A stretch of 64,000 nucleotides of DNA from a virus (IMGVR_UViG_3300045988_145033:96001-160000), one strand, 5' to 3'; counted from the stretch's first letter, positions 5,780 to 61,144 are shown. Numbers and translations: made by a program. Notes: a model not told the origin generated them from the sequence alone.

Positions 5780-5791
5780 TATTTTGGTGTT
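5780..5791 (-). promoter_or_regulatory. late promoter AACAccaaaaTA
   Basis: Minus strand, upstream of 4273..5745 (the terminase operon). Confidence 0.4.
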
Positions 5792-5816
5792 CGTAACAGA
5801 TGTATCTAGGAACATA

Positions 5817-5858
5817 GAAAAAAAAATAAAGGTGAGGCGAACCCCACCAATATTCTTT
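5817..5858 (-). terminator. intrinsic terminator (GGUGGGGUUCGCCUCACC plus U-run on the minus strand)
   Basis: A-run, GC hairpin, T-run. The A.C mismatch on plus becomes G.U on minus, so it is minus-oriented. Member of a conserved family. Confidence 0.6.
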
Positions 5859-6292
5859 TATTTCTTTCTTCTGTAAAGAGGTTGGTTTGTTCCTTCCTCT
5901 CTAAGTTGGTCCTTACTTCTTATGTATTCATAGAACCCTTTATGCTTGAAGTCAGCCTTTTTAGTAACTGACCCATCAGGGTTTTGAGTTTCTGTTACAA
6001 TTCTTTCTGAATAAGCATAGAAGCAAGGTATCCATGAGTTAAGGTCCAAACAAATCACATTTACTGCTGGTGGGAATCCAGCTACGTGTATTGCTGTACA
6101 GAAGTTTTGTTCCATGTAGTCAATAACATCATTGCAGACATATAAGTAATTGTCTGGTGTCATTTGACTCCAAGCTTTTTTCAATTCTTCACTCAATTCC
6201 ACAACTTGGTATCCCTTTTCAGCAAGTTCTTGGATTTGATTAAGACCTAATACGTGATTTGAGCAGTTTAACAAGTTTTCTAATTTTTTCAT
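5858..6292 (-). CDS. hypothetical early protein, 144 aa
   Basis: Stand-alone cassette: class A promoter plus conserved leader upstream, intrinsic terminator downstream. RBS AGGAGG. Confidence 0.55.
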   Translation of the reverse strand: MKKLENLLNCSNHVLGLNQIQELAEKGYQVVELSEELKKAWSQMTPDNYLYVCNDVIDYMEQNFCTAIHVAGFPPAVNVICLDLNSWIPCFYAYSERIVTETQNPDGSVTKKADFKHKGFYEYIRSKDQLREEGTNQPLYRRKK

Positions 6293-6340
6293 TTTTGTAC
6301 CTCCTAGTACGGTTATTTTAAATTAAGACTATTTGGAACT

Positions 6341-6356
6341 CCTGAGCCTTCTCAGG
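6341..6356 (-). promoter_or_regulatory. conserved 5'-leader hairpin (stem CCUGAG/CUCAGG, loop AAGG)
   Basis: Between the class A promoter and the RBS. Base-pair covariation across four cassettes. Confidence 0.5.
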
Positions 6357-6368
6357 TTTATTCCTTTT

Positions 6369-6396
6369 GTCTACGTTTATTATATATAATTGAAAT
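6369..6396 (-). promoter_or_regulatory. early promoter, class A: TTTCAATTATATATAATAAACGTAGAC
   Basis: One of 11 copies of TATATWATAWAYGTAGAC, all on the minus strand. About 95 nt upstream of the ATG at 6292. Confidence 0.5.
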
Positions 6397-6410
6397 ATAA
6401 AATCGTGTAA

Positions 6411-6715: not shown

Positions 6716-6727
6716 AACACCCGAATA
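6716..6727 (+). promoter_or_regulatory. late promoter AACAcccgaaTA
   Basis: AACA-N6-TA, 28 nt upstream of the ATG at 6755. Confidence 0.45.
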
Positions 6728-6754: not shown

Positions 6755-8212
6755 ATGTATGTAAAAAAAGGTATTCCTTATAATATAGTAAGTGATGACG
6801 GATATACTGGTAATTCATTTATTACAATGTCTGATATAATTGCTAATGATATAATAATGGAAGCGATTTTTAATAATAAATCAAGAGAGCAAATAAAAGG
6901 ATTAGAAACAGAACCAGTTTCTCGTGAACTTTGTGAAAGTGTACTAGATAATATAAAATCTGATGAAGTTGAATATTCTATAGATAAGATAATAGATATA
7001 GATGCAATATATACATCATCTATACAATCACTAGATAGAGAATTCAATGTAGATGAAGTAACTTTACAAGGATGCGAATTTATTGTAGATGATTATGGTT
7101 CTTCATTCACTGTAATAAAAGTGGTAACTTATGAAAATATCGAAGGAAATGAACTTAATCAAGTTCATTATTTACTACCGCTTTTCCACCATGATGTAGT
7201 TCTTGCAAATAAAGTAACGTATGCTTTACACGTATCTGGAAATGGAGAATGTGAATTTTTAAGACTTCCTATGATAGAATCAGGAGACACGTATGCTATT
7301 GATAGTCGTGAACTTGTAAATAAACTATTGGAAACTAAAGCATATTCTATGTGGTTTATGAACCTTATACAACATAAGAAACTTTTAGTAGTTCCGAAAG
7401 AAGATTTCGCTGTTCAACTTGCAAGACTTGGAATTGTGAACTTTATACCAGCACAAGGATTAGGAGTTTATCTTGACGGACAAAATAAAACTCTTATGGG
7501 TAATATAGTTGACAATAACATAAGACTTCAAAAGTTTGACGTTGATGAGATTAATAATTCTAAAGATATGATAGTTATGTATGATAATCGTTCATACAAT
7601 GAAAATCTTCTAAATCATAGACTTCCTATATCTATATCTATATTAGATGAGGGACAAGTTATGTATGCTGGAATGTATATGGACGATACATTTATAGAAA
7701 TAGCAGATAATAGAATGAAGTATATGGAAGCTGACACTTCTACTAAAATTGGAAGGCTTGCTGAAAAAGCTAAAAGAATACCAAGACAAATAGTAGAAAA
7801 AGGTGAAAAGCTTATATCTGAGCTTAGAGGCTTTATGGTTGAATGGAGAAAGGCAAAAGATGATGCTTTAAGAGAAAAGGTTATAAATGATGAGTTTATT
7901 CCTATTCTTGATAACTCTATGCAATGGCTTGTAGGTGCCGCAACTGGATTTGGAATATACTTTCTTGTCACAGCAAACCCACTTATTGCTATACTTGGTG
8001 GATATGGAGCTAAAGTTGTAAAAGGAGTTCATGATGCTAAAACTCGTGAAAGAGTTTTAAAGATGATAAAAGATGAACTCGAAATAATAGATGAGAAGAT
8101 AAACGATGCTAAAAACTCAGATGACAGAAAGAAGAAATATGCTCTTATGAGAATTAAGCAATCACTTGAAAAGAAGCTACTTGGTATAGTAAGAACTAAG
8201 AAATACGTATAA
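6755..8212 (+). CDS. head-module protein, 485 aa, C-terminal hydrophobic segment (portal or prohead protease candidate; function not assignable)
   Basis: RBS AAGGAGG. AACA-N6-TA element 28 nt upstream of the ATG. First gene of the plus-strand head block. Confidence 0.5.
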   Translation: MYVKKGIPYNIVSDDGYTGNSFITMSDIIANDIIMEAIFNNKSREQIKGLETEPVSRELCESVLDNIKSDEVEYSIDKIIDIDAIYTSSIQSLDREFNVDEVTLQGCEFIVDDYGSSFTVIKVVTYENIEGNELNQVHYLLPLFHHDVVLANKVTYALHVSGNGECEFLRLPMIESGDTYAIDSRELVNKLLETKAYSMWFMNLIQHKKLLVVPKEDFAVQLARLGIVNFIPAQGLGVYLDGQNKTLMGNIVDNNIRLQKFDVDEINNSKDMIVMYDNRSYNENLLNHRLPISISILDEGQVMYAGMYMDDTFIEIADNRMKYMEADTSTKIGRLAEKAKRIPRQIVEKGEKLISELRGFMVEWRKAKDDALREKVINDEFIPILDNSMQWLVGAATGFGIYFLVTANPLIAILGGYGAKVVKGVHDAKTRERVLKMIKDELEIIDEKINDAKNSDDRKKKYALMRIKQSLEKKLLGIVRTKKYV

Positions 8213-8896: not shown

Positions 8897-8908
8897 AACA
8901 GCAGTTTA
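8897..8908 (+). promoter_or_regulatory. late promoter AACAgcagttTAGATTAAAA
   Basis: Upstream of the putative capsid gene. Confidence 0.5.
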
Positions 8909-10756: not shown

Positions 10757-10792
10757 TGCTACCCGAAAGGGTAGCATTTCATTTACTTTTTG
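10757..10792 (+). terminator. intrinsic terminator (UGCUACCC-GAAA-GGGUAGCA plus U-run) after the capsid-like gene
   Basis: Perfect 8-bp stem, GNRA loop, T-rich tail. Confidence 0.65.
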
Positions 10793-10795: not shown

Positions 10796-10807
10796 AACAG
10801 CGACGTA
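10796..10807 (+). promoter_or_regulatory. late promoter AACAgcgacgTA
   Basis: Upstream of 10839. Confidence 0.4.
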
Positions 10808-10838: not shown

Positions 10839-11204
10839 ATGAATATTGAAATTAAAGAAGATTTTGTAGCACCCTTTTTAAATGTAGACCCTACTTGGAT
10901 AGATGAGCTTATAGCATCTAAAACCGATATACAAAATAAGGTAATTTGTATAGAAGAGTTATCCGAGCTTACTAAAGAGATTACAAAGGAGATAAGAGGT
11001 GAAGATAATAAATATGAGATAGTTGATGAAATGGTAGATGTTATAATATCACTTCAAATTATGGCAAGACTGTATCATATAACTCAAAATACTCTTGATA
11101 GTGCGTATAATAAAAAGATGAGAAGAAACCTAGAGAGGATTAGAGTTAATAAGTGGACAAGTGATATTATAAATAAGATAAAGGGTGGTGTAAATGGGAA
11201 TTAA
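10839..11204 (+). CDS. MazG-like nucleoside triphosphate pyrophosphohydrolase
   Basis: EELSELTKEITKE ... EIVDEMVDVIISLQIMARL matches the MazG/HisE E-x2-E ... E-x2-D helix motifs. 121 aa. Late element upstream. Confidence 0.5.
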   Translation: MNIEIKEDFVAPFLNVDPTWIDELIASKTDIQNKVICIEELSELTKEITKEIRGEDNKYEIVDEMVDVIISLQIMARLYHITQNTLDSAYNKKMRRNLERIRVNKWTSDIINKIKGGVNGN

Positions 11205-11998: not shown

Positions 11999-12030
11999 AA
12001 ACGGTGGGATTTTCCCACCGTTTATTTGTG
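11999..12030 (+). terminator. intrinsic terminator (aaacggtggga-tttt-cccaccgttt)
   Basis: Perfect stem followed by a T-run. Confidence 0.55.
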
Positions 12031-12080
12031 TAACGAACAATTTTTTGATATAAATTAATATAATTCAGGAGGTTTAAAAT

Positions 12081-12872
12081 ATGGATAAAAGACCAAAGAT
12101 TATAACTCTTTATGGAGAGTCTGAAATATCAGCAACTCCTAGAAAGAGAATAGTTGATAGAAAATATGTAGGTAATCAAATAGTATGGGTACAAGAATGT
12201 CTTACATTTGGAAGAACTACAAGAAATGGAAATGATTTCTTAGAAGAAAACTTTAGAGAAGCAGTAGAAGACCCTTTCGTTAATGACAGATTAAAAGGTA
12301 ATAGATTCTTCTCAGAACTTGACCACCCTAGCAAAAGCGATACAGAAAGATTCGTGCAAGTATACTTACAAAATATAGCATATAGAAATAAGCACTTCTT
12401 CTTTGAAAATGGAACTATGTATTCTGAATGTGAAACTATAGATACTCCATCTGGAAAGATAGTAAGAACTCTTATAGAATCTGATGCTGAAATAGCTGTA
12501 TCTTTTAGAGGATATGGAGTGCCTAAACTTGACGGAAATGGAGAAACTATAAAGCTTGTAGCATTTGACGTTGTATATCAACCAAGTGACCCAACTTCAC
12601 TTTCAAGAGAAGAATCATTTAGAAATCAAATGTATGCAGAAGGATATAGTGCATCTGAGTTCGCAAGAATAGCAATGAGGGATAATTTAGTTGCTTATGA
12701 TACTATTCCTAAAAATTCAGGACTTTATGCTGAAGCTTCATTTGAAGGTATAAGACCTAAGCAAGTTATAAAATACGGAGATGACGTTTTAGGTATTACT
12801 TATGAAACTAAGGAAGAAATAGAAAGAAATGCTAAAGCTCAAGGATTTAGAAACTTTATCATAAATCTATAA
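12081..12872 (+). CDS. head-associated protein, 263 aa, with three Y(G/A)E motifs
   Basis: RBS AGGAGG. Motifs LYGESE, MYAEG and LYAEAS. Located within the structural block. Confidence 0.45.
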   Translation: MDKRPKIITLYGESEISATPRKRIVDRKYVGNQIVWVQECLTFGRTTRNGNDFLEENFREAVEDPFVNDRLKGNRFFSELDHPSKSDTERFVQVYLQNIAYRNKHFFFENGTMYSECETIDTPSGKIVRTLIESDAEIAVSFRGYGVPKLDGNGETIKLVAFDVVYQPSDPTSLSREESFRNQMYAEGYSASEFARIAMRDNLVAYDTIPKNSGLYAEASFEGIRPKQVIKYGDDVLGITYETKEEIERNAKAQGFRNFIINL

Positions 12873-13702: not shown

Positions 13703-13957
13703 AATGTGACAACACTAGATTGTGATAAGTTAGGTATATAACATCTGAAGCTAGAAAAACTGGTACAAGAATATTAGTCGACAATATCTTGGATAGAGTG
13801 TACACAATTAGTTCTAACGTAAGTCCGGTAAACCGCATGGAAGCGTTCAGCAATAGGGCGGAAGTGTTACGAGTGGTTTAGAAGCCTTCGGTAGTTTGAT
13901 GCCTTTATATGCAAACCTTATCACCCGGATAGTCTTTTATACTTTTAGAATATAGAT

Positions 13958-14000
13958 AAAAAAAAATAAAGGGAGGCGAAAGCCTCTCCTTATTTTTATT
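13958..14000. terminator. bidirectional terminator between convergent genes (gggaggcgaaagcctctcc)
   Basis: A9 upstream and T-run downstream. Confidence 0.5.
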
Positions 14001-15039: not shown

Positions 15040-15100
15040 AATATCATTCCTCCTTTTAATTTTAAATTAAGACATTATTGCCTTTTAATATTATTTATTA

Positions 15101-15123
15101 CTATAGTTATTATATATAATCAA
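15101..15123 (-). promoter_or_regulatory. early promoter variant
   Basis: GATTATATATAATAACTATAG upstream of 13996..15039. Confidence 0.35.
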
Positions 15124-15144
15124 ATGCAAAAATTCGTAGGAGCA

Positions 15145-15190
15145 TAAAAAAAATAAGGAGAGGTTTGTGAACCCCTCCAAATTATTTTAG
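15145..15190 (-). terminator. intrinsic terminator (ggagaggtttgtgaacccctcc)
   Basis: A-run, hairpin, T-run. Confidence 0.5.
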
Positions 15191-15438: not shown

Positions 15439-15480
15439 TTTAAACCTCCTCAGGTATTTTAAATTTTGGCATTAAGAACT

Positions 15481-15496
15481 CTCAACCCTTGTTAAG
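15481..15496 (-). promoter_or_regulatory. conserved 5'-leader hairpin (CUUAAC-AAGG-GUUGAG, one G.U)
   Basis: Same leader position as the other cassettes. Confidence 0.5.
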
Positions 15497-18746: not shown

Positions 18747-18798
18747 TATATCACTCTCCTTTATATTCTATTTAAAAGTTTTTCAAAAAATAAAATAA

Positions 18799-19355: not shown

Positions 19356-19367
19356 TATAAAAATGTT
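19356..19367 (-). promoter_or_regulatory. late promoter AACAtttttaTA
   Basis: Minus strand, upstream of the acidic 162-aa gene. Confidence 0.4.
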
Positions 19368-21732: not shown

Positions 21733-21744
21733 CTAAAAAGGTGT
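21733..21744 (-). promoter_or_regulatory. late promoter (divergent) AACAcctttTTA
   Basis: Minus strand, upstream of 20353..21708. Confidence 0.4.
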
Positions 21745-21757
21745 TCGATACAGTGAA

Positions 21758-21769
21758 AAACAGCCCTTT
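21758..21769 (+). promoter_or_regulatory. late promoter AACAgcccttTAGTTAAAAA
   Basis: Upstream of 21808. Confidence 0.45.
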
Positions 21770-21807
21770 AGTTAAAAATTATAAATAAAATAGGAGGTTT
21801 AAAATAT

Positions 21808-26796: not shown

Positions 26797-26808
26797 TAAA
26801 ACGCTGTT
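26797..26808 (-). promoter_or_regulatory. late promoter AACAgcgtttTAGATTAAAA
   Basis: Minus strand, upstream of 25323..26765. Confidence 0.5.
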
Positions 26809-28153: not shown

Positions 28154-28165
28154 TACACCTATGTT
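28154..28165 (-). promoter_or_regulatory. late promoter AACAtaggtgTAGATTAAAA
   Basis: Minus strand, upstream of 26871..28109. Confidence 0.5.
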
Positions 28166-28228: not shown

Positions 28229-28241
28229 AACAAGGAAAATA
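28229..28241 (+). promoter_or_regulatory. late promoter variant AACA-N7-TA
   Basis: AACAaggaaaaTA upstream of 28271. Also TTGAAA-N15-TATAAT nearby. Confidence 0.3.
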
Positions 28242-35626: not shown

Positions 35627-37366
35627 TTAAAAATATTTATTTATATCAAATGAAGACCAATCTTCATCATAATTTACATTACTAAAATCTAAGTCTTCTG
35701 ATATCGTAGGTTTTTGCTTAAAATATTTGTGAGCATTACTTAAGAAATCTATAAACTCATCTCTTATCTCAACAGGCTTAGATTTATTTTGCATGGTATT
35801 TCCTACCTTCACTTTAAGCTCATATAAATACTTCTTCTCAACTATATGAGTTATAGAAGATAGACAACCGTCTACATTCGCTGCTATAAATGTAGGTATA
35901 GTTCCTCCGAAATCAGCAAGTGTAACTTGAGCGTTATTTACAGATGAGTAAACCTTACCAAATAAAGCAAGAGCTAGGTTTTCATAGTCTTTATGTATTA
36001 AATCAAATATGTGTATAACCATAGCTTTATAATCACTCATAGTCATAATATTAACAGGCTCTGATATAGAGTATCTCATATTAAGATATAGCGATATTAA
36101 AAACTTGCCTAAGTTGTGCTTTTGAATATGAAAGTTACGACTCATAGCTATAGTTCCATTATCAGTAAGAGATACGGCTTCTTTTACAGCTTCATCTCTT
36201 ATACTTATCATATACTCGTAGTTCTCTTTATTCTCATTTATACGAGCATCAAATACATCTTTTTCTGCATTCAAATCAGCTCCTTCTACTCTCATAGAAT
36301 AACTAGGTTTGAAGTTAGTTAAAGTATTTTGCAAAATTTGATTTAGAGTCGCTGATAAGTATTTTGCTATCTTCATAAAATAGAACTTTCTTTCAGCTGG
36401 GTCCATATCAGAATTCACATCAAAATCATCTCTTTCATCATTTTTATCTTCATCATCTTTTCTTGCAAGACGTGAAGCTTTCTGTGCTTCTATTGAAAGA
36501 GACGGCACAATTCTGTGTATTCCATTAAACATTTCATAGATTACTTTTTGATATAGATATGGCATATTAACTCCAACTATACCAAATTTATCTATGATAG
36601 TTTTGTCTGATAGTTTCTTAGAATCTATATAAGGCGATAAGTAGTCAAATGCCACTTTATCAAAGAAGTTCTTTCTTATAGCTCCTATAGATTCTGGGTA
36701 ATACTTCATTATTGTATTTCTAAGTATTATATCAGAAAGTCCATTTGGGAATTCTTCCATTCCTTGAGATGTATCAAATATAACATCTGAAATCATAGAC
36801 ACGTAGTCCCCTGCATCCATTACTGTAAGATAAGATATATAAAATATCCTAGAGAAAGTGAATAGCATAGAGAATGTATATATGTCATAACTTGCAAGTC
36901 TTGCTTCTTCTTGGTCTCCACCTTGAATATTATCTACAGCTACAGCATGCGTGTATCTGTCTATAATATCTATTATTCTTTCATCTTTAGCGAATCTATT
37001 TAAAACATTCGTAAAGTATTTCTTTTTAACAGCATGTGCTGACAGTTTCTCTCCGTATAACTCCTTTGAGTTTTCAAGCATATAAGAACATCTTTTCTGA
37101 ATTGTATCAGTCTGTAAAGACTTTGCTAGTTCAAACAAGTGTCCTATTATGTATCTGTAGTCTGTGTCAGTTTCAGACTCATACGGTGCTCTATTTTGCT
37201 TAACCCACGTAAGCATCCTATTTAGAGCATTAACAACAGATACCGCAGTGGGAGATGTCATTCCCCCATTGCTTCTTGCTCTTTTGAAACGAAGAGGTGT
37301 ATTACCTATGTGAAATATAATATCCTTTCCATTTTCCAAAAATTTAGCATAAACATTATTACTCAT
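35627..37366 (-). CDS. hypothetical protein, 579 aa
   Basis: RBS AAGGAGG. Class B promoter upstream. Confidence 0.45.
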   Translation of the reverse strand: MSNNVYAKFLENGKDIIFHIGNTPLRFKRARSNGGMTSPTAVSVVNALNRMLTWVKQNRAPYESETDTDYRYIIGHLFELAKSLQTDTIQKRCSYMLENSKELYGEKLSAHAVKKKYFTNVLNRFAKDERIIDIIDRYTHAVAVDNIQGGDQEEARLASYDIYTFSMLFTFSRIFYISYLTVMDAGDYVSMISDVIFDTSQGMEEFPNGLSDIILRNTIMKYYPESIGAIRKNFFDKVAFDYLSPYIDSKKLSDKTIIDKFGIVGVNMPYLYQKVIYEMFNGIHRIVPSLSIEAQKASRLARKDDEDKNDERDDFDVNSDMDPAERKFYFMKIAKYLSATLNQILQNTLTNFKPSYSMRVEGADLNAEKDVFDARINENKENYEYMISIRDEAVKEAVSLTDNGTIAMSRNFHIQKHNLGKFLISLYLNMRYSISEPVNIMTMSDYKAMVIHIFDLIHKDYENLALALFGKVYSSVNNAQVTLADFGGTIPTFIAANVDGCLSSITHIVEKKYLYELKVKVGNTMQNKSKPVEIRDEFIDFLSNAHKYFKQKPTISEDLDFSNVNYDEDWSSFDINKYF

Positions 37367-37396: not shown

Positions 37397-37419
37397 GTCC
37401 TTACATATATTATATATAA
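37397..37419 (-). promoter_or_regulatory. class B promoter
   Basis: TATATATAATATATGTAAGGAC upstream of 35627..37366. Confidence 0.45.
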
Positions 37420-39919: not shown

Positions 39920-39931
39920 TAGTGGGGTGTT
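39920..39931 (-). promoter_or_regulatory. late promoter AACAccccacTA
   Basis: Minus strand, upstream of the SbcC-like gene. Confidence 0.4.
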
Positions 39932-42645: not shown

Positions 42646-43950
42646 TTACTTACCTTCCTTATGTGATAAATGTACATCTGGTATAGAAAACGCAAGAAGT
42701 CCAGCAAGTCCTACGTTATCTGAAGTTGAAGTTCCTATTGGGTCTATTATACCTAGCTGGTCCATTCTAAAACTTCTATCACGAGTTATCTCAGCGTCAT
42801 CTTCTATATTTGAGATATAACCAAAGAAGTTGTATACATCAACTTCATTCGCAGACTTTGTGATAGCGTACTGATTATTATTCTTAATAATAGTACACAC
42901 GGTTCTTGGGTCTACATTTATCTTAGATTTATATGTATTCAAGTTTTGCTTTTTCGCTTTCTTACCAGCTATTTTGAGTCCCTTTTTAATCTCCATTCTA
43001 AGTTTACCTCTTAGAGATGTATGAAGTGATATTACTTCTTCAGTACCACCATAAGTTGTAGCTATTATGTATCTATACAAACTATCAACAACGTCAGTTG
43101 GTGGAATACTATCTCTTACATTTTCAACATCCATATCTTCTAAATCCCAGTGGTCTAAATCTTCTATGGTATTTTCTAAGATTTGAGCAAACTCAGCCTT
43201 TCTATCTTCATCTTCTATATCTAGTATCTTCTCTACATCCTTTTTGGTAAGCTCTGGATTTCTTCCTAAGAATAGCAAAGGATTATAGTTACTTGAGAAT
43301 ATATTAGTTATAAATATAGGCTCTCCAGTATTTGGAGATTTATCTACAGATAAGTAACTCACATAGCTTGGATGTTGACATTTAAGCTTTCCTTCTTTTG
43401 TAAGAGATATACTATCTTGTATATGAAACTTATTGAAATAATGATTTCCATTAAGTCTTATTACATTATTTATAAGTCTCGGAATGTACAAATTCACTCT
43501 TATGAAAAGAGATTGTGGTTCTTCTTCAGTACTCATCATATTTAAATCATATGTAAGTATTTCTTGCTTTAAGTGCTCATCATACCATTCAAGTTTAGGC
43601 AAACTTAAAAGTTCTCTTCTTGTATTTGCTTTACCCGGTCCTATGGTGTTATCCGAAACCTTATCTTCGGATAGTAAAAACCAACATTCCATACAAGATA
43701 TAACATCATCTGACATATCTATATATATGTCTTCCTTTGTCTTTGTCTTGTGCATATAATCCACATTTGTCATTCTGAAATCTTCCTCTAAATTAACAGG
43801 AAGCATTCTGTAACCATAAAGTCTTACTCCAGTTACAGTCTTTAATATATCAACTACTATAGTTTTAAGTTCTCTTCTTTCTTTATCTACAACCATAGGG
43901 TTAATAGAATTTATCGAAAGTTTCTCTCTTATTCTATTATTAAACTTCAT
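42646..43950 (-). CDS. multisubunit RNA polymerase beta subunit, N-terminal module
   Basis: The C-terminus TRDRSFRMDQLGIIDPIGTSTSDNVGLAGLL aligns with bacterial beta [34 protein letters not shown] (E. coli residues about 545-580). Confidence 0.55.
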   Translation of the reverse strand: MKFNNRIREKLSINSINPMVVDKERRELKTIVVDILKTVTGVRLYGYRMLPVNLEEDFRMTNVDYMHKTKTKEDIYIDMSDDVISCMECWFLLSEDKVSDNTIGPGKANTRRELLSLPKLEWYDEHLKQEILTYDLNMMSTEEEPQSLFIRVNLYIPRLINNVIRLNGNHYFNKFHIQDSISLTKEGKLKCQHPSYVSYLSVDKSPNTGEPIFITNIFSSNYNPLLFLGRNPELTKKDVEKILDIEDEDRKAEFAQILENTIEDLDHWDLEDMDVENVRDSIPPTDVVDSLYRYIIATTYGGTEEVISLHTSLRGKLRMEIKKGLKIAGKKAKKQNLNTYKSKINVDPRTVCTIIKNNNQYAITKSANEVDVYNFFGYISNIEDDAEITRDRSFRMDQLGIIDPIGTSTSDNVGLAGLLAFSIPDVHLSHKEGK

Positions 43951-45926: not shown

Positions 45927-45937
45927 GGCGAAATATC

Positions 45938-47824
45938 TTATTCTTCATCATTGAAATTAGGATTGTTTAATTTAACACCCATAGCCATAAATAGAGCATT
46001 TACATTTTGTATACTTTCTTGCTCTGTCATAGAATTTATGTATTTCAAATCATCAGGGTGAAGTGAGTTCACTTGAACGTCAGCAACAAGCGATGATTTT
46101 CTAACTGGTGTATTTCTTATTCTACTTTCACCTGTTCTTAATATAATACCACGAGAGTCAAAGCTACCCTTTGCTCTTAGAGACAACTGAGTTTCAGCAA
46201 CTTGCTTCAAAGGTGTTACAAAAAGTTTAGATACAAATGCTTCTCCTAAACACATTTCTCCATGTTCTGTATTCATATAAACTTTAGTTCTTTTTACGTT
46301 AAGTCCTACAGAGTTCATATAGTTACGAGCTTCATAGCAAGTACCAATAGTAGTTCCACTATGATAAGTAGATTGATACCAACGAATTTGTGGGTCTTTT
46401 ATAAAATCTTCAAATCCGCCATTTTCAAATTCATACTTATAAGCTTCATACATCTTCTTATCCATAATAGATAATATCTTTAAGATATGAGTTTTCATTT
46501 CATCTAGTGGCTTTAGCTTCTCTCTTATAAATCTTTCTATTACCATTGTGATATAAGTTTGAAACATTTCCATCGGAACTTCCATAATAGCACGATTAAA
46601 TAGTGCTAGACAGTTTCCAAGATATTCAAGGTTTCCATATTCTTTTGTGTAATATTTACCACTATTAAATACACTAGAAACTGTGAACTTATTTCCACAT
46701 CTACCTGTAATCTTTTGTCCATTTATAGGAACTTCTCTATCGACAGTTGTAATCTTTAAAACTATTGCTTTCTTTGAAAGTATTTTCTTATATTTAAAAC
46801 CGCCTTCTTTATCATAGATAGTTCTTAAGAAGTTATACTTATCTATAAAATCATATGAGAATTTAGATTCAGAATACTCATCATTTTCATAGAATTCTTT
46901 TAAGGAATCGAGTACCTCTCTTTCATACTTTCTAGTAGCTTCTATAAGTCCCGCAAGATATGTATTTTGACATTGTTCTCCAAGTTTTTGTCTACAAGTT
47001 ATATCAACTACTTTTCCTCTTGCATATACTCTTTTGTCATTCTTATTAACTGAATCCATTCCACTTGCGAGTTTCACTCTTTGATACTCTCCCTTTTGCT
47101 TTGCTATTGCTAAAAGTAAATCATTTTGTATATCTTCTCCTACAAGTGGGAAAGGTCTATAAGTATCATCAGTTCCATATAGATTCTTTAGTATATCATT
47201 ATCGACATCTATTATCTCCTCCGTAACTTGATACTTCCAACCAGCAAATCTTTCAGCTAGGCTCGTAGAAATCAGTCCTGCATCTTCGATAGATTTGACA
47301 TCAATAGATAATACAGATAAAGCATTTACTCCCCATTTATACTCCATATCCTCTCCATATGAATTAGTACGTATGATAGATTCGTCTTTTGGTATTTCAT
47401 CTCCTTCTTTATACGAAGATAAGTCATCTATCATTTTAACTCCATAGCCAGCTCCAGTTTCTTCATATCCGTGGAACTCTATATAGTTAAATTCATCGTT
47501 TTCTTTATCATATAGAATATACGAAGTCACACCACAATATTCTCCATTTATATACTTCGGAATAGCTTTACAAAGTGTATAGTTATTCTCGGCAAATATA
47601 TTTTTAGTAGATTTAAGAATATCATACGAGTATGCTGTATCTACTATTGGAACTTCACCGTTCTCTATTGGACGATACTGGTTCGAGGCATTCGAGAACA
47701 TATTACCTCTATTTTTGGAAACCATACCCTCGTGTGGTATTATGTTACCTTTACCATTGAACCTATCGAGCATTTCATTCCATTCAGGAATTTCCTTGTA
47801 TAGAGTTGTCTTTAATTCTTTCAT
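45938..47824 (-). CDS. multisubunit RNA polymerase beta subunit, C-terminal module
   Basis: GQKITGRCGNKF matches beta GDKMAGRHGNKG. Downstream HGEMCLGEAF matches FGEMEVWALEAYG. N-terminal GNMFSNASNQYRP resembles motif NMQRQAVP. 628 aa. Confidence 0.6.
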   Translation of the reverse strand: MKELKTTLYKEIPEWNEMLDRFNGKGNIIPHEGMVSKNRGNMFSNASNQYRPIENGEVPIVDTAYSYDILKSTKNIFAENNYTLCKAIPKYINGEYCGVTSYILYDKENDEFNYIEFHGYEETGAGYGVKMIDDLSSYKEGDEIPKDESIIRTNSYGEDMEYKWGVNALSVLSIDVKSIEDAGLISTSLAERFAGWKYQVTEEIIDVDNDILKNLYGTDDTYRPFPLVGEDIQNDLLLAIAKQKGEYQRVKLASGMDSVNKNDKRVYARGKVVDITCRQKLGEQCQNTYLAGLIEATRKYEREVLDSLKEFYENDEYSESKFSYDFIDKYNFLRTIYDKEGGFKYKKILSKKAIVLKITTVDREVPINGQKITGRCGNKFTVSSVFNSGKYYTKEYGNLEYLGNCLALFNRAIMEVPMEMFQTYITMVIERFIREKLKPLDEMKTHILKILSIMDKKMYEAYKYEFENGGFEDFIKDPQIRWYQSTYHSGTTIGTCYEARNYMNSVGLNVKRTKVYMNTEHGEMCLGEAFVSKLFVTPLKQVAETQLSLRAKGSFDSRGIILRTGESRIRNTPVRKSSLVADVQVNSLHPDDLKYINSMTEQESIQNVNALFMAMGVKLNNPNFNDEE

Positions 47825-51105: not shown

Positions 51106-51117
51106 TAAAATCGTGTT
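51106..51117 (-). promoter_or_regulatory. late promoter AACAcgatttTAGATTAA
   Basis: Minus strand, upstream of 50808..51080 and the helicase operon. Confidence 0.5.
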
Positions 51118-54031: not shown

Positions 54032-54077
54032 AAATTATCACCTCTTTCTCAAAAAAATGTTAGTGACAGATATGAAA

Positions 54078-54988: not shown

Positions 54989-55010
54989 GTCTACGTATAT
55001 AATATATATT
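54989..55010 (-). promoter_or_regulatory. class B promoter
   Basis: TATATATTATATACGTAGAC upstream of 54117..54950. Confidence 0.5.
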
Positions 55011-55881: not shown

Positions 55882-57047
55882 TTCTTATCACCATCTTTCT
55901 TAGCATCTTTTTCTATTATCTTATCAAGCTCATCTTCAGCTTCTTGTGATTTCTTATATGCCTTTTTGTAATCTTCGTGAATACACTTTCTTTTAAGAGC
56001 TTTAATCCATTCTTCTATAGAGTGCTCTTCTACAAACTTCTCACCTAAGATAATCTTTGATATTATATAAAGATTAGATTCTTTCTCGGTTCTATCCTTA
56101 AAAGTATCGTATGTCATCTTAGCACCTTTACAATAGAATACTTCTATATTTTCCTGAACCTTATCGCTTTCTATATATCTCATAAGATTAACTGTAACCA
56201 TATATCCCTTTGGTGGAAATATAAAGAAAGCAAATCCATCTTCTACATTTCTTATAGGTAGAGCAAAGTATTTATCCTTTTCTCCAGAACCTAATATAAA
56301 TGCTGGAAATTCAACTCCTTCAAATTCTTTTGCGTATTTAGGTGGAGTAAACCAACCTTCACTATATAGTAAAGCGAAGTCTATTCTTGGTGGTATTACA
56401 ACTCTTCCTTTCTTTATGAGTTTCTCTATGGTGATAAAAGTGGAATCGAGTGCTTTTACTTCTTTTTCTCCTTCTACTTGAACGTAGTTAAAATTCCAGT
56501 TATCAAGTATCTCTTTAAAGATAGCGATATTCTTCTTTCTATCCTTTATAAAGTGTGGAGACATATTAGGATTATCAAGTCCGTCTTTTCCAGATATTAT
56601 AAGATTTAAAGGTTTTACAAATATATCAGGAATATGATTTAAGTTCTTACCTTCAAACTTATAAGGAATAACAACAGAAGCTGGTGCTTCTACTTCTTCT
56701 GAAGTATATCCTTTATTATCTAAGTATTCGAGTATTCCGTATTCAATATTTGATAATACTATCTTTTGTCCACCATCTTTAAACGTATAAGTTTTAGCTA
56801 TACTTCTATTAGCCATAAGTTTATCCTTTTGAAATTCAGGAATACTAGCAAGATTGGTAGTTCCATATTTATCAAGCATTCTTTTATTTCTTATCTCTAC
56901 ATACTTCTTGACACAATCATCTGAGCAAAATCTATTGTATCTTCCTTTCTCTTCATTCCAAGAAGTAGGCTTTTTACAGATGACGCATTTACCTATATTT
57001 TTTCTATATTTATTACGCTCTAAAAACGCTTTTTGTTTCTCAGTCAT
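55878..57047 (-). CDS. zinc-ribbon-containing protein, about 389 aa (start at ATG 57047, MTEKQ...)
   Basis: AAAGGAG 8 nt upstream of the ATG at 57047. N-terminal CVIC...C..C cluster. Confidence 0.45.
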   Translation of the reverse strand: MTEKQKAFLERNKYRKNIGKCVICKKPTSWNEEKGRYNRFCSDDCVKKYVEIRNKRMLDKYGTTNLASIPEFQKDKLMANRSIAKTYTFKDGGQKIVLSNIEYGILEYLDNKGYTSEEVEAPASVVIPYKFEGKNLNHIPDIFVKPLNLIISGKDGLDNPNMSPHFIKDRKKNIAIFKEILDNWNFNYVQVEGEKEVKALDSTFITIEKLIKKGRVVIPPRIDFALLYSEGWFTPPKYAKEFEGVEFPAFILGSGEKDKYFALPIRNVEDGFAFFIFPPKGYMVTVNLMRYIESDKVQENIEVFYCKGAKMTYDTFKDRTEKESNLYIISKIILGEKFVEEHSIEEWIKALKRKCIHEDYKKAYKKSQEAEDELDKIIEKDAKKDGDKK

Positions 57048-57097
57048 ATATAACTCCTTTCGGGACAAAACCCCTATTTCTCAACGAAATGTTTTAA

Positions 57098-57109
57098 AAC
57101 AGCTGGGTA
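57098..57109 (+). promoter_or_regulatory. late promoter AACAgctgggTA
   Basis: 30 nt upstream of the gp25-like gene. Confidence 0.45.
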
Positions 57110-57138: not shown

Positions 57139-57585
57139 ATGAAAGCTGTTCCAATACCACAGAAAGATTTGATTAAATATATAGAAACTCCTATGAGTTT
57201 ATCTGAATTTAATAAAAATGAACGCTACGAGGATATTCGTGGCATTATAAATTTTCTTTTAAATTTAATAGTAATGGTGCCGGGAACTATACCCGAGATG
57301 CCAGAAATGGGTTACGATTTGCATGGAAGAAGACACTTTATAATGAATGGAAAGTCTCTTATGAAGCAAACTGATGACCTTAAAAAACAAATAGCACTAT
57401 ATTGCAATCATAATGCAATAACAGCAACTACTGTGTATCCTACAACTGACCATATAACAGGAGAGCAATCCGTTACAGTTATAGAAATAATGCTAGCAAC
57501 TGGAGAGGTTGTAAAACTGTATGATGACGGTTATGATACAAAGATAGGCGTTAATATAATAGATGGAAAAGATTTTAGTAAATAA
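57139..57585 (+). CDS. baseplate wedge protein, gp25/GPW family
   Basis: LNLIVMVPGTIPEMPEMGYDL matches T4 gp25 LLGIITTRKGSRPFDPEFGCDL. 148 aa. Late element AACAgctgggTA 30 nt upstream. Confidence 0.65.
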   Translation: MKAVPIPQKDLIKYIETPMSLSEFNKNERYEDIRGIINFLLNLIVMVPGTIPEMPEMGYDLHGRRHFIMNGKSLMKQTDDLKKQIALYCNHNAITATTVYPTTDHITGEQSVTVIEIMLATGEVVKLYDDGYDTKIGVNIIDGKDFSK

Positions 57586-57598: not shown

Positions 57599-59383
57599 AT
57601 GGAAGAAAAAATGACACTTGCCGAATATGGTAAGAAGTTACAAGAGGGAGAAGGTATAACTCCTATTAAAGAAGAAAGCGAAGTATTTGGTGAAGAAACT
57701 AAAAGTGAGAATACTGTAAGCGTTAATACTCCAGCAAGTGAGAGCTTAGATGATGTAGAAGTATTTGACCCAAAAGATGCTTCTAAATTTATACCTAGTA
57801 TGCAAAGAGTAGCAAACTTATCAGAACGTGGTGGAATAATTCCTGCTATGAATGAAGAAGAAATAGCAGATATGAATAAGAAACTTGAAGGTGCTGAAAA
57901 TCTATACATGAAGTATACAGAAAAGGACGCTATTGCATCTATAGAAGCTTTAAGAAGACACGGATATACAGATGCTGAAATAGATGAACTTCCATATCTT
58001 AAACTTCTATCTATAGGTAAAGCTATAATAGAAGACGAGAAAGCTGGAACTGTAGGAGATATGAAAGATAAAGTAGATGAAAATGGAAATATAGATATGT
58101 CTCATATGAATGAAGAAGTTACAAATAGTGGACTTAAAAAGGTAGATGAAACTGTAAGAGTCGACTCAGCTGTTTCTGGTGTTCAATCTAATAATCCTAA
58201 CCCTACAGTAATAGATAAAGACGGTAAAGACTTAACTAAAGAGGAAGAAGATGAATTAGTAGAAAAATCTCTAAATGATATGCTAGATGCTAATAAAAAG
58301 GTGTATATTAAATATGCTGATAAACCTTTAAACTCTTATAGAAGAGCAAAGGAATCAAAAGCTAAGAAGCTACTTTCAAGACAAAAAAGAGGAAATAAGG
58401 TAGAAGTATTCCTACCTAACTCAAATCTTATGCTTGAAGTATTTGAAATTCATCAACCTATGATAATAAATGAAGTTATGACTTTAACTCAAATGAGCCA
58501 AGATATAATGGCTAAGAAAAGAGTAGTGGAAGCTATACTTGAAAGGTCAAATCCTATGTGCTCAGACGGTGATGAGATAACTGTAGACGGTATGATGAAC
58601 TATATATCTTATGACGATTTAGGATACATTTATTTAGCAGCGGCTTATGCAAATACTATAGGAGAAGTTCCTTATGGTGTAAGATGTGAAAAATGTGGAA
58701 CACAAGGAACTATAAAGCTTGATATACCTAAACTATTCACAAAGGCTATACAAGATATACCTGATGATGTAAAAGCTCAATATAACCCTTCTGATAGCTT
58801 TGGTAAGTGTATAGAAAAATCGCTAGCTAATAAGATAGTAGAAGTAAAAGATAAAGATGCAAGAGTTGTAGTAACTCTATCTAATCCGTCTTTACTTGCT
58901 AACTGTACACTAGGACAAGCTATAAAGACATATATTTGCGAATCATTTGCATCTATGATACCTGAACAATTCAAGTTCCAATCTATAGATACTAAGTTTG
59001 ATTTCTTAGCAAATCTTGAATCTAATGAGATTATGAAAACTGTATCAGCTTGTGTAATCTTGTCTTATATAGAAAAGGTAGATATATTCACATTTGAAGG
59101 CGGAGAAGATAATTGGGATAATCCTGAATTCTTAGATGCTTCTTATGATAGTGATGAAGACGGAGTGGACTTAATGATAGAAACTATGCTATCTTTAGAA
59201 AAGTCTACTATGGATATAATAGAAAAGACTATAGAAAAGGAATATATAAGAAAGAGAATAGAGCTTGATACTGGAGCTTGGTCTTGTCCTAATGAAAAGT
59301 GTAAAGCTATTAACTCTTCGAGGGTTGAGGGTTTAGAGCTATTGATTCTTTCTTTGTCTCACAAGATGGAAGAAAGCAAATAG
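57599..59383 (+). CDS. putative baseplate protein, 594 aa, acidic
   Basis: Directly downstream of the gp25-like gene. RBS AAGGAGG. Confidence 0.35.
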   Translation: MEEKMTLAEYGKKLQEGEGITPIKEESEVFGEETKSENTVSVNTPASESLDDVEVFDPKDASKFIPSMQRVANLSERGGIIPAMNEEEIADMNKKLEGAENLYMKYTEKDAIASIEALRRHGYTDAEIDELPYLKLLSIGKAIIEDEKAGTVGDMKDKVDENGNIDMSHMNEEVTNSGLKKVDETVRVDSAVSGVQSNNPNPTVIDKDGKDLTKEEEDELVEKSLNDMLDANKKVYIKYADKPLNSYRRAKESKAKKLLSRQKRGNKVEVFLPNSNLMLEVFEIHQPMIINEVMTLTQMSQDIMAKKRVVEAILERSNPMCSDGDEITVDGMMNYISYDDLGYIYLAAAYANTIGEVPYGVRCEKCGTQGTIKLDIPKLFTKAIQDIPDDVKAQYNPSDSFGKCIEKSLANKIVEVKDKDARVVVTLSNPSLLANCTLGQAIKTYICESFASMIPEQFKFQSIDTKFDFLANLESNEIMKTVSACVILSYIEKVDIFTFEGGEDNWDNPEFLDASYDSDEDGVDLMIETMLSLEKSTMDIIEKTIEKEYIRKRIELDTGAWSCPNEKCKAINSSRVEGLELLILSLSHKMEESK

Positions 59384-59610
59384 GTTTTTTACATAATGTC
59401 GTTATCATCTTAGAAGGTAAGTATTCATATGAAACTCTAGCAGAAATGCCTATGAGTGAAATAGAAGCTCTACTTCAACATAATCAAGAATTTATAAGGA
59501 TTAGAGATGAGATGATGGAGAAACAAAGACAGAAAGCAGAGCAAGAATCAAGAAACGGAAATAAAAAAGGTAGAACTACTAAAGAACCAATATATTATTA
59601 AAATAAAAAT

Positions 59611-59636
59611 ATATGTGTGGGATATCCCACACATAT
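59611..59636. terminator. perfect 26-nt palindrome atatgtgtgggatatcccacacatat
   Basis: Follows the baseplate gene after an A-run. Bidirectional hairpin. Confidence 0.45.
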
Positions 59637-59728
59637 ATTTAGAAATACAAAATATTTCGGAGATAACTTTTATGAGAAGACAATATAAAGAATATTATCG
59701 ACTTACAAAAAGTTATTTAAGAAGATGT

Positions 59729-60315
59729 GGGACACCCAATGAATATTGATATTGACATTTCAACTCAAAGAAGTGTTCCTAATATTGTAATAAAAGATTT
59801 AGGTAGGCTTTCGCCTACCAATGTCATACATTATTAAATAACTTGTATAAAAGGACACCTAAATAATCTACATAAATTTAAGTACGAGTGATATAATATT
59901 CAAACCGAAAAGGATGAAATTATTTCAAATACGTGTTGTGCATATTTTAAGGTGGGCATATGCCCACCCGAGATGTGTCTTGTTAGTTGAATTTGAACCA
60001 AATAGTTCAAGCTCTCTTCACAAGTGGTAGAATAGGACACCTAAGAGAACCTTGATAAAATCATTATCATGGCTATTAATAGCCATATAAATGTTAAATT
60101 GAGGGGTGGAGCTCAAAGCTCCACACAATAGGACACCTAAGTCATTAATTAAATTTTATTAAGTTTTCTTCATGGGGTATCATACTTTGATATCCAAAAA
60201 AGTAATTAAGAATCTTCTCACTTAAAGAGGATTCTGATTCTTAGAAGAGAAAGTAAAGAGAACTACCTCTATCGTAATTCTCTTTCCTTGTCTAAATGAA
60301 TAAAGTGGGACACCC
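59729..60315 (+). repeat. five copies of a GGACACCYAA motif (plus orientation) at 59729, 59852, 60034, 60130 and 60307, each preceded by a short perfect hairpin
   Basis: Copies are GGGACACCCAA twice and AGGACACCTAA three times. Adjacent hairpins: ggtaggctttcgcctacc, ggtgggcatatgcccacc, gtggagctcaaagctccac. Confidence 0.6.
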
Positions 60316-60405
60316 AAGGTATTATATGATTTCTACATGAGTAATAAGATAACAATTTTTCCAAATGTTTATGCTATCATTTATCTTGTTAGTCAATTTT
60401 AAAAA

Positions 60406-61104
60406 TTACATAGTAACCATACATAGTCCATCTGAGCTATCAAGAGATACAATCTTACCGAATATCTCTTTTATCTCTTTATCATAATCTTCTACAGATT
60501 TATGCTTTTCGTATGTATTTATTATATTATCTAAATAATGAACTATTTGAGCTATTCTTTTAACCCAAGTTTCATCTTTAGCACTTTCTATGTGATGGTC
60601 AGGTTTACCGTCTTTCATTACTATCTTATATATAAGCTCATCAAATACAAAAGTATATACTTTAGCATTATTACCTTCAGGGTGTATAGATAAGCTATCA
60701 AGAACCATAACACTATCAGTTATTGCTTGTTCATTCTCTCTTTTACTCATATCAGTAATAAGTACATTCACATCAAATAACTCATATCCATTATTTCTCA
60801 AATCATTATGAGCTTTATATCTTTCAAGTATAGTCTTATTAGCATCCCAAGTAATATCAGCTTTTTCTATATTATGATTACCTATTACTATTATCTCATT
60901 CTCAGTTCTTATTCTAATAGTAATATCATTATTAAAAGGATGTCCGTTATATATCCCTATTTCAGTTTCTACACTCTTACCTTGCTTTCTATAATGTGAT
61001 GATACACCTTCTACTATATTTGATATAAATATACCTTTATCCTCTTTACTTAAATACTTAGTAGTACCTATTATATCAATATTTAAAACTACCTTACATT
61101 TCAT
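60406..61104 (-). CDS. hypothetical protein, 232 aa
   Basis: RBS AAAGGAGG. Late element AACAttttcgTA upstream. Confidence 0.45.
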   Translation of the reverse strand: MKCKVVLNIDIIGTTKYLSKEDKGIFISNIVEGVSSHYRKQGKSVETEIGIYNGHPFNNDITIRIRTENEIIVIGNHNIEKADITWDANKTILERYKAHNDLRNNGYELFDVNVLITDMSKRENEQAITDSVMVLDSLSIHPEGNNAKVYTFVFDELIYKIVMKDGKPDHHIESAKDETWVKRIAQIVHYLDNIINTYEKHKSVEDYDKEIKEIFGKIVSLDSSDGLCMVTM

Positions 61105-61132
61105 ATTAATTATCCTCCTTTAAACTTAATTA

Positions 61133-61144
61133 TACGAAAATGTT
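61133..61144 (-). promoter_or_regulatory. late promoter AACAttttcgTA
   Basis: Minus strand, upstream of 60406..61104. Confidence 0.4.

Follow-up and report, generated by a model that had tools for sequence, protein, structure and literature searches.

The window analysed here, a 64,000-nt stretch of DNA, belongs to a phage that is a roughly 180-kb relative of the Fusobacterium phages JD-Fnp1/4/6/7; JD-Fnp1 is a near-identical phage. Between its genes lies a short word, AACA-N6-TA, that an initial annotation had placed upstream of at least 14 genes. An exact scan of the whole window on both strands finds 13 copies, all where they had been claimed and none elsewhere, the site before 28271 being an N7 variant (Table 1). 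All 13 are intergenic and each is aimed at a gene, whose start codon lies 26-45 nt past the TA and is accompanied by a Shine-Dalgarno site. Sites that had escaped the first listing comprise AACA-N6-TG before 12081, 54031 and about 57047-57049, and AACT-N6-TAGA before 18746 and 62239; the window total is 13 TA and 3-4 TG promoter-type sites. Hairpins followed by a T-run stand 16-33 nt upstream of six sites, and two divergent promoter pairs, at 21734..21745 with 21759..21770 and at 57082..57093 with 57098..57109, share intergenic regions of only 70-99 nt.

Table 1. Predicted promoter sites, associated hairpins and RNA polymerase genes in the window
Feature	Position	Strand	Sequence	Gene behind the site, or basis	Hairpin (distance before site)
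Late promoter core, exact; predicted +1 the A at 5780	5780..5791	-	AACACCAAAATA	490-aa gene 4273-5745, then large terminase 1724-4270	
Late promoter, exact	6716..6727	+	AACACCCGAATA	6755-8212, homologue of AR9 gp115 virion protein	
Late promoter, exact	8897..8908	+	AACAGCAGTTTA then GATTAAAA	8950-10704 (584 aa), probable major head protein from synteny only	
Late promoter, exact	10796..10807	+	AACAGCGACGTA	10839-11204, MazG-like NTP pyrophosphohydrolase	10757-10785, terminator-like (22 nt)
Late promoter variant, G at +1	12036..12047	+	AACAATTTTTTG	prohead protease 12081-12872	12000-12031 (16 nt)
Candidate variant, T at -8; weaker, one core mismatch	18769..18780	-	AACTTTTAAATA then GA	would drive 18354-18746	18791-18819 (24 nt)
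Late promoter, exact	19356..19367	-	AACATTTTTATA	18827-19315	
Late promoter, exact	21734..21745	-	AACACCTTTTTA	20353-21708, AR9 gp165-like virion structural protein	
Late promoter, exact	21759..21770	+	AACAGCCCTTTA	21808-23640	
Late promoter, exact	26797..26808	-	AACAGCGTTTTA then GATTAAAA	25323-26765	26830-26854 (33 nt)
Late promoter, exact	28154..28165	-	AACATAGGTGTA then GATTAAAA	26871-28109	
Candidate N7 variant	28229..28241	+	AACAAGGAAAATA then GTTA	would drive 28271-31417 (1048 aa)	
gp226/gp68-family sigma-like nvRNAP subunit gene (579 aa)	35627..37366	-		predicted structure	
Early-type motif, one of about 11 sites	37401..37416	-	TATATAATATATGTAA	gp226-like gene	
Other early-type sites	6371, 15108, 15512, 17924, 18313, 45909, 47866, 48603, 49061, 54991				
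Late promoter, exact	39920..39931	-	AACACCCCACTA	SbcC/SMC-like ATPase 37410-39890	39947-39977 (27 nt)
Probable nvRNAP beta-N subunit gene (434 aa)	42646..43950	-		hhalign vs AR9 gp105	
nvRNAP beta-C subunit gene (628 aa)	45938..47824	-		phmmer vs AR9 chain 7s00_C (gp089), E 8e-27	
Late promoter, exact	51106..51117	-	AACACGATTTTA then GATTAATT	50808-51080 and RecA/UvsX-like gene 49488-50807	51127-51157 (21 nt)
Late promoter variant, G at +1	54050..54061	-	AACATTTTTTTG	52883-54031	
ATG of gene ending 55878	about 57047-57049	-			
Late promoter variant, G at +1	57082..57093	-	AACATTTCGTTG	gene ending 55878, AR9 gp233-like protein	
Late promoter, exact	57098..57109	+	AACAGCTGGGTA	57139-57585, AR9 gp232-like baseplate wedge protein	
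Late promoter, exact	61133..61144	-	AACATTTTCGTA	60406-61104	
Candidate variant; weaker, one core mismatch	62267..62278	-	AACTTATTTATA then GA	would drive 61715-62239	

Form, distribution and conservation of the probable late-promoter motif

Both the 6-nt length of the spacer and the purine at +1 are specific features of the signal. In the spacing series AACA-Nk-TA, only k = 6 combines 0 coding copies with 13 non-coding ones; because no more than 11/125 copies with k = 4, 5, 7 or 8 are promoter-like, the probability that all 13 N6 copies would be so by chance is about 1e-14. When the bases after AACA-N6 are varied, the promoter-like share in the window is 13/13 for TA, 4/13 for TG, 0/26 for TC and 0/17 for TT, with corresponding shares of 22/31, 15/38, 1/90 and 3/73 in JD-Fnp1. 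The AR9 genome served as positive control, and there the same tally recovers the known late signal (66/274, 15/138, 3/196 and 9/359). The AR9 consensus had initially been quoted as AACA(N6)TW, a form that does not hold, the published one ending in T-A/G (PMC5312081) and no TT copy in the window being promoter-like. A position matrix favors bases beyond those of the AR9 consensus, with A preferred at -14, R at -12, C at -6, G at +2 and A at +3, and it carries no information upstream of -14, where no conserved -35-like element appears. A sigma-70 promoter (TTGACA and TATAAT, ~17 bp apart) was considered and rejected, as positions -7 to -2 are variable and nothing is conserved near -35. Four copies had also been said to share an 8-nt extension; three of them do carry the full TAGATTAAAA (8897, 26789-26808 and 28146-28165), whereas the fourth, at 51098-51117, reads TAGATTAATT.

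The initial annotation had assumed a background of about one copy per 1.3 kb per strand with enrichment before genes, and had proposed shuffled sequence as a control. Dinucleotide shuffles of the window contain 77.9 +/- 8.2 copies of AACA-N6-TA, so the assumed background must be replaced by a ~6-fold depletion; the few copies left are without exception intergenic and gene-directed, and the observation proves stronger than first described. Codon permutation of the window's genes predicts ~56 copies within genes on both strands, yet coding DNA holds 0 against 35.3 expected in the sense and 0 against 20.6 in the antisense orientation, the values for JD-Fnp1 being 9 against 104 and 3 against 58. 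The AACA tetramer is itself the second most avoided in coding DNA, after GATC, with z-scores of -12.4 in the window and -23.1 in JD-Fnp1. That coding DNA has been purged almost completely of the motif, and even of the bare AACA, is a new feature of the phage.

Comparison of the upstream regions of orthologous genes in clade-2 relatives (76% major-head-protein identity) indicates which bases are retained: AACA and T-R are kept at fixed spacing amid diverged N6 and flanking sequence. At the 8897 position clade 2 reads AACATAGTGGTA, at the ortholog of the 12036 site it reads AACAATTTTTTA, the 5780 site is kept with a different N6, and TA and TG are exchanged at one and the same orthologous site. 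At the 61133 site JD-Fnp1 reads AACATTTTCATA, with one change within the N6. AACA-N6-TR is also kept before the SbcC-like ortholog in relatives L026, L027/L028 and L029; in relatives that keep this site the gp226-like protein is 47%, 35% and 22% identical, and conservation of the motif upstream of orthologs reaches down to about 20% marker-protein identity. In JD-Fnp1, the late motif lies upstream of sheath, portal and baseplate genes and also of DNA polymerase genes, and N7 late-like variants lie upstream of the virion-RNAP operons.

Polymerase genes and a second, early-type motif

The initial annotation had linked the motif to RNA polymerase fragments nearby, and AR9-type machinery is indeed encoded beside it. 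The beta-C subunit of the non-virion RNA polymerase (nvRNAP) has AR9 gp089 as its tblastn counterpart, with further homologues in PBS1, S6 and phiR1-37. In the same gene cluster is a probable, if weakly marked, beta-N subunit, which resembles AR9 gp105 locally (hhalign E 7e-4 at a IPRLINNVIRLNGNHYF motif) and possesses a GIIDPIGTSTSDNVGLAGLL fork-loop-like motif; its pairwise Smith-Waterman score is not significant. The 579-aa gp226-like protein, assigned from its predicted structure, is the presumed reader of the motif, and profile comparison found no sequence similarity for it. JD-Fnp1 encodes the remaining nvRNAP subunits, beta'-N and beta'-C, along with both virion-RNAP subunits. Sequence identity between the RNAP subunits and those of AR9 is only about 23-25%.

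A second motif is similar to the consensus of AR9 early promoters, AAATATATATTAT-(6N)-G (PMC5312081). The pattern TATATAWTAWANGTAR has 9 matches against 1.18 expected, all upstream of genes; several of the early-type sites read TATATATTATATA, and relatives L027/L028 have an exact AAATATATATTAT before the gp226-like gene. By its sequence and placement, this motif would be an AR9-type early promoter, used by the virion RNAP. The beta-C and gp226-like genes each lie behind such an AT-rich element, and the beta-C, beta'-N, beta'-C and gp226-like genes have the early motif only, never the late one. The late motif of the window precedes virion-protein, baseplate, protease and terminase-operon genes, and the two promoter classes are distributed in complementary fashion.

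Reading of the motif and comparison with known systems

It is very probable that 5'-AACA-(6N)-T-R-3' is a late promoter read by the phage's AR9-like nvRNAP, with specificity provided by the gp226-like subunit and beta-N. The late consensus of AR9 is A(-11)ACA-(6N)-T-A/G(+1), of which -11 to -8 and +1 are essential (PMC5312081, PMC5449584), and a five-subunit nvRNAP reads it through gp226 and the beta-N protein gp105 (PMC5312081, PMC5449584, PMC9209446). Core, 6-nt spacing and +1 purine all match, which bears out the AR9-type interpretation first offered. It can be inferred that nvRNAP is the reader, that it recognizes the motif on the template strand, and that the A or G of T-R is the first transcribed base. 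By analogy with AR9, an injected virion RNAP would transcribe early genes, the nvRNAP subunit genes among them, from AT-rich TATATAWTAWA-N-GTAR promoters; the assembled nvRNAP would then initiate 7 nt past AACA, on the purine, yielding mRNAs with AT-rich leaders of 19-45 nt for head, tail, packaging, recombination and virion-RNAP genes. As these 12 nt seem to be nearly all that initiation requires, selection would have cleared both strands of coding DNA of stray motif copies and of the AACA tetramer. The label 'late' rests on the minority of downstream genes that are recognizable virion genes, and the class may comprise middle as well as late promoters, because the motif also precedes recombination or replication genes, namely the SbcC-like gene, the RecA operon and, in JD-Fnp1, the DNA polymerases.

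Other readings of the same sites are conceivable. The motif could be a promoter read by host RNA polymerase that a phage factor has redirected, as T4 gp55 does, and its position, orientation and terminator-promoter architecture would then look alike; this is unlikely, however, given that the motif coincides with the consensus published for the non-virion polymerase of AR9, that neither a -10 TATAAT nor a -35 element accompanies it, and that window and JD-Fnp1 together encode a full nvRNAP core set. A role in RNA, as a processing site or as a 5'-UTR element for stability or translation in transcripts begun elsewhere, would agree with the sense orientation and the fixed short distance upstream of Shine-Dalgarno sites. 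Yet several copies directly follow terminator-like hairpins, where little read-through RNA is expected, the motif is avoided nearly as strongly in antisense, which an mRNA element would not need, divergent pairs occupy shared intergenic regions, and the start codon follows at a variable distance whereas the motif's own spacing is invariant, so that this explanation is quite improbable. Least credible is a regulator's operator, or a packaging or replication signal, that resembles the AR9 promoter by coincidence: a conserved intergenic word this short may serve many functions, but nothing specific points to these, the half-sites are of unequal length (4 nt and 2 nt) with only their spacing fixed, orientation toward a gene is strict, the +1 purine rule is common to AR9, and the motif co-occurs with an AR9-type polymerase in distant relatives.

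With the nvRNAP-read promoter as the favored reading, the closest parallel is AR9, a Bacillus phage of the PBS1 group with an unrelated host and the only phage for which an AACA-N6-T-purine late signal had been reported; the signal now extends to a Fusobacterium phage. Both phages have the same core, spacing and +1 purine, place the motif before virion genes and not before nvRNAP genes, and lack a -35 element, as is likewise true of AR9 late promoters (PMC9209446). They also share homologous beta-C, beta'-N and beta'-C subunits, a subunit with a predicted gp226 fold, and a very similar AT-rich early promoter (TATATATTAT...). Differences are the host, here a Gram-negative anaerobe, the genome size (~180 kb versus 251 kb in AR9) and the gp226 counterpart, which is 115 residues longer and without detectable sequence similarity. 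AR9 also tolerates 274 copies of AACA-N6-TA, of which 188 lie within genes, and shows no avoidance of AACA, whereas here there are essentially none outside promoters. Uracil DNA is established for AR9, whose nvRNAP has a strict requirement for deoxyuridine at template positions -11 and -10 (3'-UUGU-5'); because of this requirement, and because JD-Fnp1 yielded no homologue of Ugi, dCMP deaminase or 5'-nucleotidase from AR9, base chemistry or details of recognition may differ from AR9.

Homologous RNAPs are also encoded by phiR1-37, a Yersinia phage that is related to AR9 and has uracil DNA, and the window's beta-C counts that of phiR1-37 among its closer relatives. Attempts to derive a late consensus for phiR1-37 had not succeeded (PMC5312081), and in 50 kb of its genome promoter-like copies number 8/38 at N6 versus 7/55 at N7, so that AACA-N6-TA is not clearly favored. 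In the Pseudomonas phage phiKZ, a gp68-containing nvRNAP reads a different late promoter, T(-3)ATG(+1); a promoter of this type was rejected for the present phage, TATG occurring at 0/13 predicted start sites, where the context is T-A-G-A or T-G-A. The late promoters of phiKZ are unpredictable from sequence (PMC7598289), in contrast to those of the present phage. T4 late promoters (TATAAATA at -10) are also short single elements that lack a -35 box and precede structural genes, but their sequence is another and their reader is host RNAP with gp55 and gp33, whereas the present phage encodes multisubunit polymerases of its own.

Distribution of the late-type motif

Thirteen exact copies of AACA-N6-TA are found on the two strands of the window, at the positions reported in the initial annotation. 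All 13 are intergenic, each faces a gene, and a Shine-Dalgarno site and start codon lie 26-45 nt downstream of every copy. The motif had been described as a frequent background sequence enriched locally upstream of genes; dinucleotide-preserving shuffles contain 77.9 +/- 8.2 copies, so the motif is about six-fold depleted rather than common background with local enrichment. An additional fourteenth site, upstream of 28271, is present but as an N7 variant, and the extension TAGATTAAAA ascribed to four copies is exact in three, the fourth reading TAGATTAATT.

Coding DNA was compared with a null in which codons are permuted while the codon content of each gene is retained, and the same comparison was made for the complete genome of JD-Fnp1 and for 250 kb of Bacillus phage AR9, whose published late promoter served as positive control. 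JD-Fnp1 is one of four Fusobacterium nucleatum phages (JD-Fnp1, 4, 6 and 7; genomes of ~175-180 kb) with ~90% DNA identity to the window. The motif is purged from window genes, and AACA alone is strongly avoided there (sense, 145 versus 347 expected; antisense, 143 versus 256), an avoidance that AR9 lacks under the same null. Among tetramers AACA is the second most significantly depleted after GATC (z = -12.4 for the window, -23.1 for JD-Fnp1). A four-nucleotide promoter core has been almost wholly lost from both strands of the genes, an effect about as strong as the avoidance of restriction sites and an unusually clear instance of selection against spurious initiation.

Counts of the late motif and of 4-nt palindromes in the window and comparison genomes
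Sequence	Window	JD-Fnp1	AR9
AACA-N6-TA in genes, sense (observed / expected)	0 / 35.3 +/- 5.5	9 / 104	120 / 151
AACA-N6-TA in genes, antisense (observed / expected)	0 / 20.6 +/- 4.8	3 / 58	68 / 90
N6-TA, promoter-like fraction	13/13	22/31	66/274
N6-TG, promoter-like fraction	4/13	15/38	15/138
N6-TC, promoter-like fraction	0/26	1/90	3/196
N6-TT, promoter-like fraction	0/17	3/73	9/359
GATC (observed / expected)	0 / 182	3 / 516	
GGCC (observed / expected)	0 / 37	0 / 109	
GCGC (observed / expected)	0 / 37	4 / 109	
CGCG (observed / expected)	2 / 37	11 / 109	

Both spacing and final base are constrained. When the spacer of AACA-Nk-TA is varied from k = 0 to 12, in-gene copies fall to zero at k = 6 only, where 13 non-coding copies stand, and number 15-47 at every other length. 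Copies counted as promoter-like if an ORF of 40 aa or longer, with its start codon and a Shine-Dalgarno site, followed 15-70 nt downstream, and the resulting fractions replace the T-W ending proposed initially with T-purine, the published AR9 ending. Further preferences are A at -14, R at -12, not-A at -7, C at -6, G at +2 and A at +3, with no conserved positions farther upstream. Promoters of the sigma-70 type and of the phiKZ TATG type were rejected on sequence.

Palindromes counted over the whole window and the whole JD-Fnp1 genome show a separate pattern of loss; CATG is low too, and depletion is absent for GCNGC and CCGG. The nearly absent 4-nt palindromes match the sites of the F. nucleatum enzymes FnuEI/FnuCI, FnuDI, FnuDIII and FnuDII, a pattern which suggests that the phage DNA encounters type II restriction in its host. 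Window genes further show about two-fold depletion of CTGC/GCAG, CCTC/GAGG and GGTC under the codon-permutation null; one possibility is that these are further restriction or defence target sites.

Organization of predicted late transcription units

Correctly placed AACA-N6-TG copies and two AACT-N6-TAGA variants add to the late-type sites of the window, and in JD-Fnp1 AACA-N6-TG precedes both DNA polymerase genes while N7 variants precede both virion-RNAP operons (coordinates are tabulated below). The +1 base or spacer length may tune promoter timing or strength. RNA processing at the motif, rather than initiation, would be a different explanation for such sites. However, a perfect hairpin followed by a T-run lies 16-33 nt upstream of six late sites, late promoters diverge from two intergenic regions, and genes avoid the motif nearly as strongly on their antisense as on their sense strand, all of which favour initiation of new transcripts.

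The window also contains long stretches with no convincing ORF (837-1437, 13703-13995, 59384-60405, 61392-61714 and 62821-63227); searches of these for tRNAs and Rfam families found none.

Polymerase genes and the early-type motif

Between JD-Fnp1 and AR9, 27 genes are common (phmmer, ORFs against ORFs), including both virion-RNAP subunits (AR9 gp145 and gp189) and the beta-C (gp089), beta'-N (gp270) and beta'-C (gp154) subunits of the non-virion RNA polymerase (nvRNAP). In JD-Fnp1, beta'-N and beta'-C are encoded by genes 99 and 153. The window beta-C matches phiKZ gp71 much more weakly (E 3e-3) than AR9, and beyond the Fusobacterium clade tblastn matched it best, at 22-25% identity, to AR9/PBS1, Staphylococcus phage S6 with its relatives and Yersinia phage phiR1-37. 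It belongs to an early minus-strand cluster (42646-47824) ordered beta-C, a 422-aa unknown, a 192-aa unknown and a 434-aa protein that, judged by its sequence, is probably nvRNAP beta-N. A local hhalign match links the 434-aa protein to AR9 gp105 (E 7e-4); Smith-Waterman alignment of the two was not significant, and a PDB profile search with its family gave zero matches. Few of the large and late-promoter genes gave a Pfam or PHROGs match, so that functional labels are based on AR9 homology and JD-Fnp1 annotation.

The specificity subunit of the AR9 enzyme, gp226, adjoins primase. Neither gp226 nor gp105 had a significant phmmer or BLASTP match among window and JD-Fnp1 ORFs, and PDB sequence searches with three candidate proteins returned only noise. 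A 579-aa protein was picked as the gp226 candidate because its gene lies near the primase gene and has an early promoter upstream, and because the protein is helical with an acidic central linker. Distant family members were added by profile search of 1.84 billion representative proteins, and a model built from 11 sequences reached a pLDDT of 74; profile-profile comparison of the family with gp226 (hhalign) found no sequence similarity. The 579-aa gene is presumed, from the modelled structure, to encode the nvRNAP specificity subunit. The 422-aa gene, which shows weak colinear matches to gp226, was set aside as its homologue because the 579-aa protein matched gp226 by structure; its product may be a further polymerase-associated protein.

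A second motif, a T-run followed by TATATAWTAWA-N-GTAR, occurs at about 11 intergenic minus-strand sites (9 matches to the pattern versus 1.18 expected) and is similar to the early consensus of AR9, AAATATATATTAT-(6N)-G (PMC5312081). Downstream of it lie small-gene clusters, beta-C, the gene after beta-C and the gp226-like gene, and in JD-Fnp1 it precedes the beta'-N and beta'-C genes; no nvRNAP gene is preceded by the late motif.

Coordinates of polymerase genes and predicted promoter sites (window unless stated)
Feature	Position	Strand	Remarks
gp226-like protein, 579 aa	35627-37366	-	candidate by position, early promoter, helical make-up
Probable beta-N, 434 aa	42646-43950	-	two hallmark beta motifs; beta-C cluster member
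422-aa gene	44605-45951	-	between beta-C and beta-N
nvRNAP beta-C	45938-47824	-	AR9 nvRNAP chain 7s00_C match, E 8e-27
AACA-N6-TG	12036-12047		upstream of prohead protease
AACA-N6-TG	54050-54061		upstream of 52883-54031
AACA-N6-TG	57082-57093		upstream of gene ending at 55878; divergent pair with promoter at 57098
AACT-N6-TAGA			upstream of 18354-18746
AACT-N6-TAGA			upstream of 61715-62239
JD-Fnp1 late-type sites, DNA polymerase genes and virion-RNAP operons	150097-150108, 180008-180019, ~13860, ~93930		
Early motif	6371-6386	-	
Early motif	15108	-	
Early motif	15512-15527	-	
Early motif	17924	-	
Early motif	18313-18328	-	
Early motif	37401-37416	-	
Early motif	45909-45924	-	own promoter of 422-aa gene, within end of beta-C
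Early motif	47866-47881	-	
Early motif	48603-48618	-	
Early motif	49061-49076	-	
Early motif	54991-55006	-	

Both motifs persist among relatives. In a second clade, found among IMG/VR contigs from human oral samples and carrying a 584-aa head protein 76% identical to that of the window, AACA and T-R stand at unchanged spacing upstream of orthologous genes, while spacer and flanks differ (head protein, AACAGCAGTTTA in the window and AACATAGTGGTA in the clade; 490-aa gene, AACACCAAAATA and AACACCCCTTTA, respectively). TA and TG are exchanged at single sites, the protease promoter having TG in the window and TA in the second clade, and the MazG gene promoter TA in relative L015 and TG in L025. 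More distant relatives, reached via the gp226-like protein (L026, 47% identity; L027/L028, 35%; L029, about 22%), retain AACA-N6-TR upstream of the orthologous SbcC/SMC-like gene; before the gp226-like gene they also retain an early block like that of AR9, in L027 the exact AR9 consensus AAATATATATTAT. In L026, an ENA contig of 108 kb, a diversity-generating retroelement (13750-17413) with a reverse transcriptase (RVT_1), a bAvd protein and an mtd-like target protein adjoins the polymerase module.

Comparison with AR9 and other large phages

Late promoters of large phages that encode RNA polymerases are considered not predictable bioinformatically (PMC7598289), and for phiR1-37, a uracil-DNA relative of AR9, no late consensus was obtained (PMC5312081); in the 50 kb of phiR1-37 examined here there was no clear N6 preference. 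The JD-Fnp paper mentions neither RNA polymerase, promoters nor uracil, and descriptions of the AACA late promoter in the literature that could be searched concern AR9 only. In the window phage the signal is sharp enough for late transcription units to be located from genome sequence directly.

The AR9 enzyme needs dU in the template at -11 and -10, a requirement relieved by the gp226 substitution V206G (PMC9209446). A dU genome is a feature of AR9; AR9-like nucleotide-metabolism genes were not found in the JD-Fnp1 gene content, which has no bearing either way on uracil versus thymine. It is possible, if somewhat doubtful, that the JD-Fnp clade combines thymine DNA with the AR9-type promoter, the diverged gp226-like subunit being a natural thymine-tolerant reader of 3'-TTGT-5' and specificity coming from the purging of AACA-N6-TR, and of AACA generally, rather than from uracil. 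Alternatively, the genomes of these common human oral phages may contain deoxyuridine, which would likewise be new. Either there is dU DNA in these phages or the template-strand AACA mechanism functions on thymine DNA, a directly testable question.

The annotation's reading of the motif as an AR9-type late promoter is supported, and by analogy with AR9 the nvRNAP would be what reads it. In AR9, early genes, including those for nvRNAP, are transcribed by the virion RNAP and late genes by nvRNAP thereafter; the complementary distribution of early and late motifs, with start sites predicted, matches this scheme. Unlike AR9, the window phage has purged the motif from its genes and prefers additional bases around it, and its specificity subunit, if correctly modelled, has diverged from gp226 past sequence recognition. 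The AACA-(6N)-TA/G promoter type was known; what appears new, from the genomes compared, is its occurrence in a Fusobacterium phage lineage and its purge from genes. The comparison supports the presence of an AR9-like two-promoter system, an early AT-rich block and a late AACA motif, in a distant lineage whose host is a medically relevant Gram-negative anaerobe of the mouth and which turns up repeatedly in human oral metagenomes.
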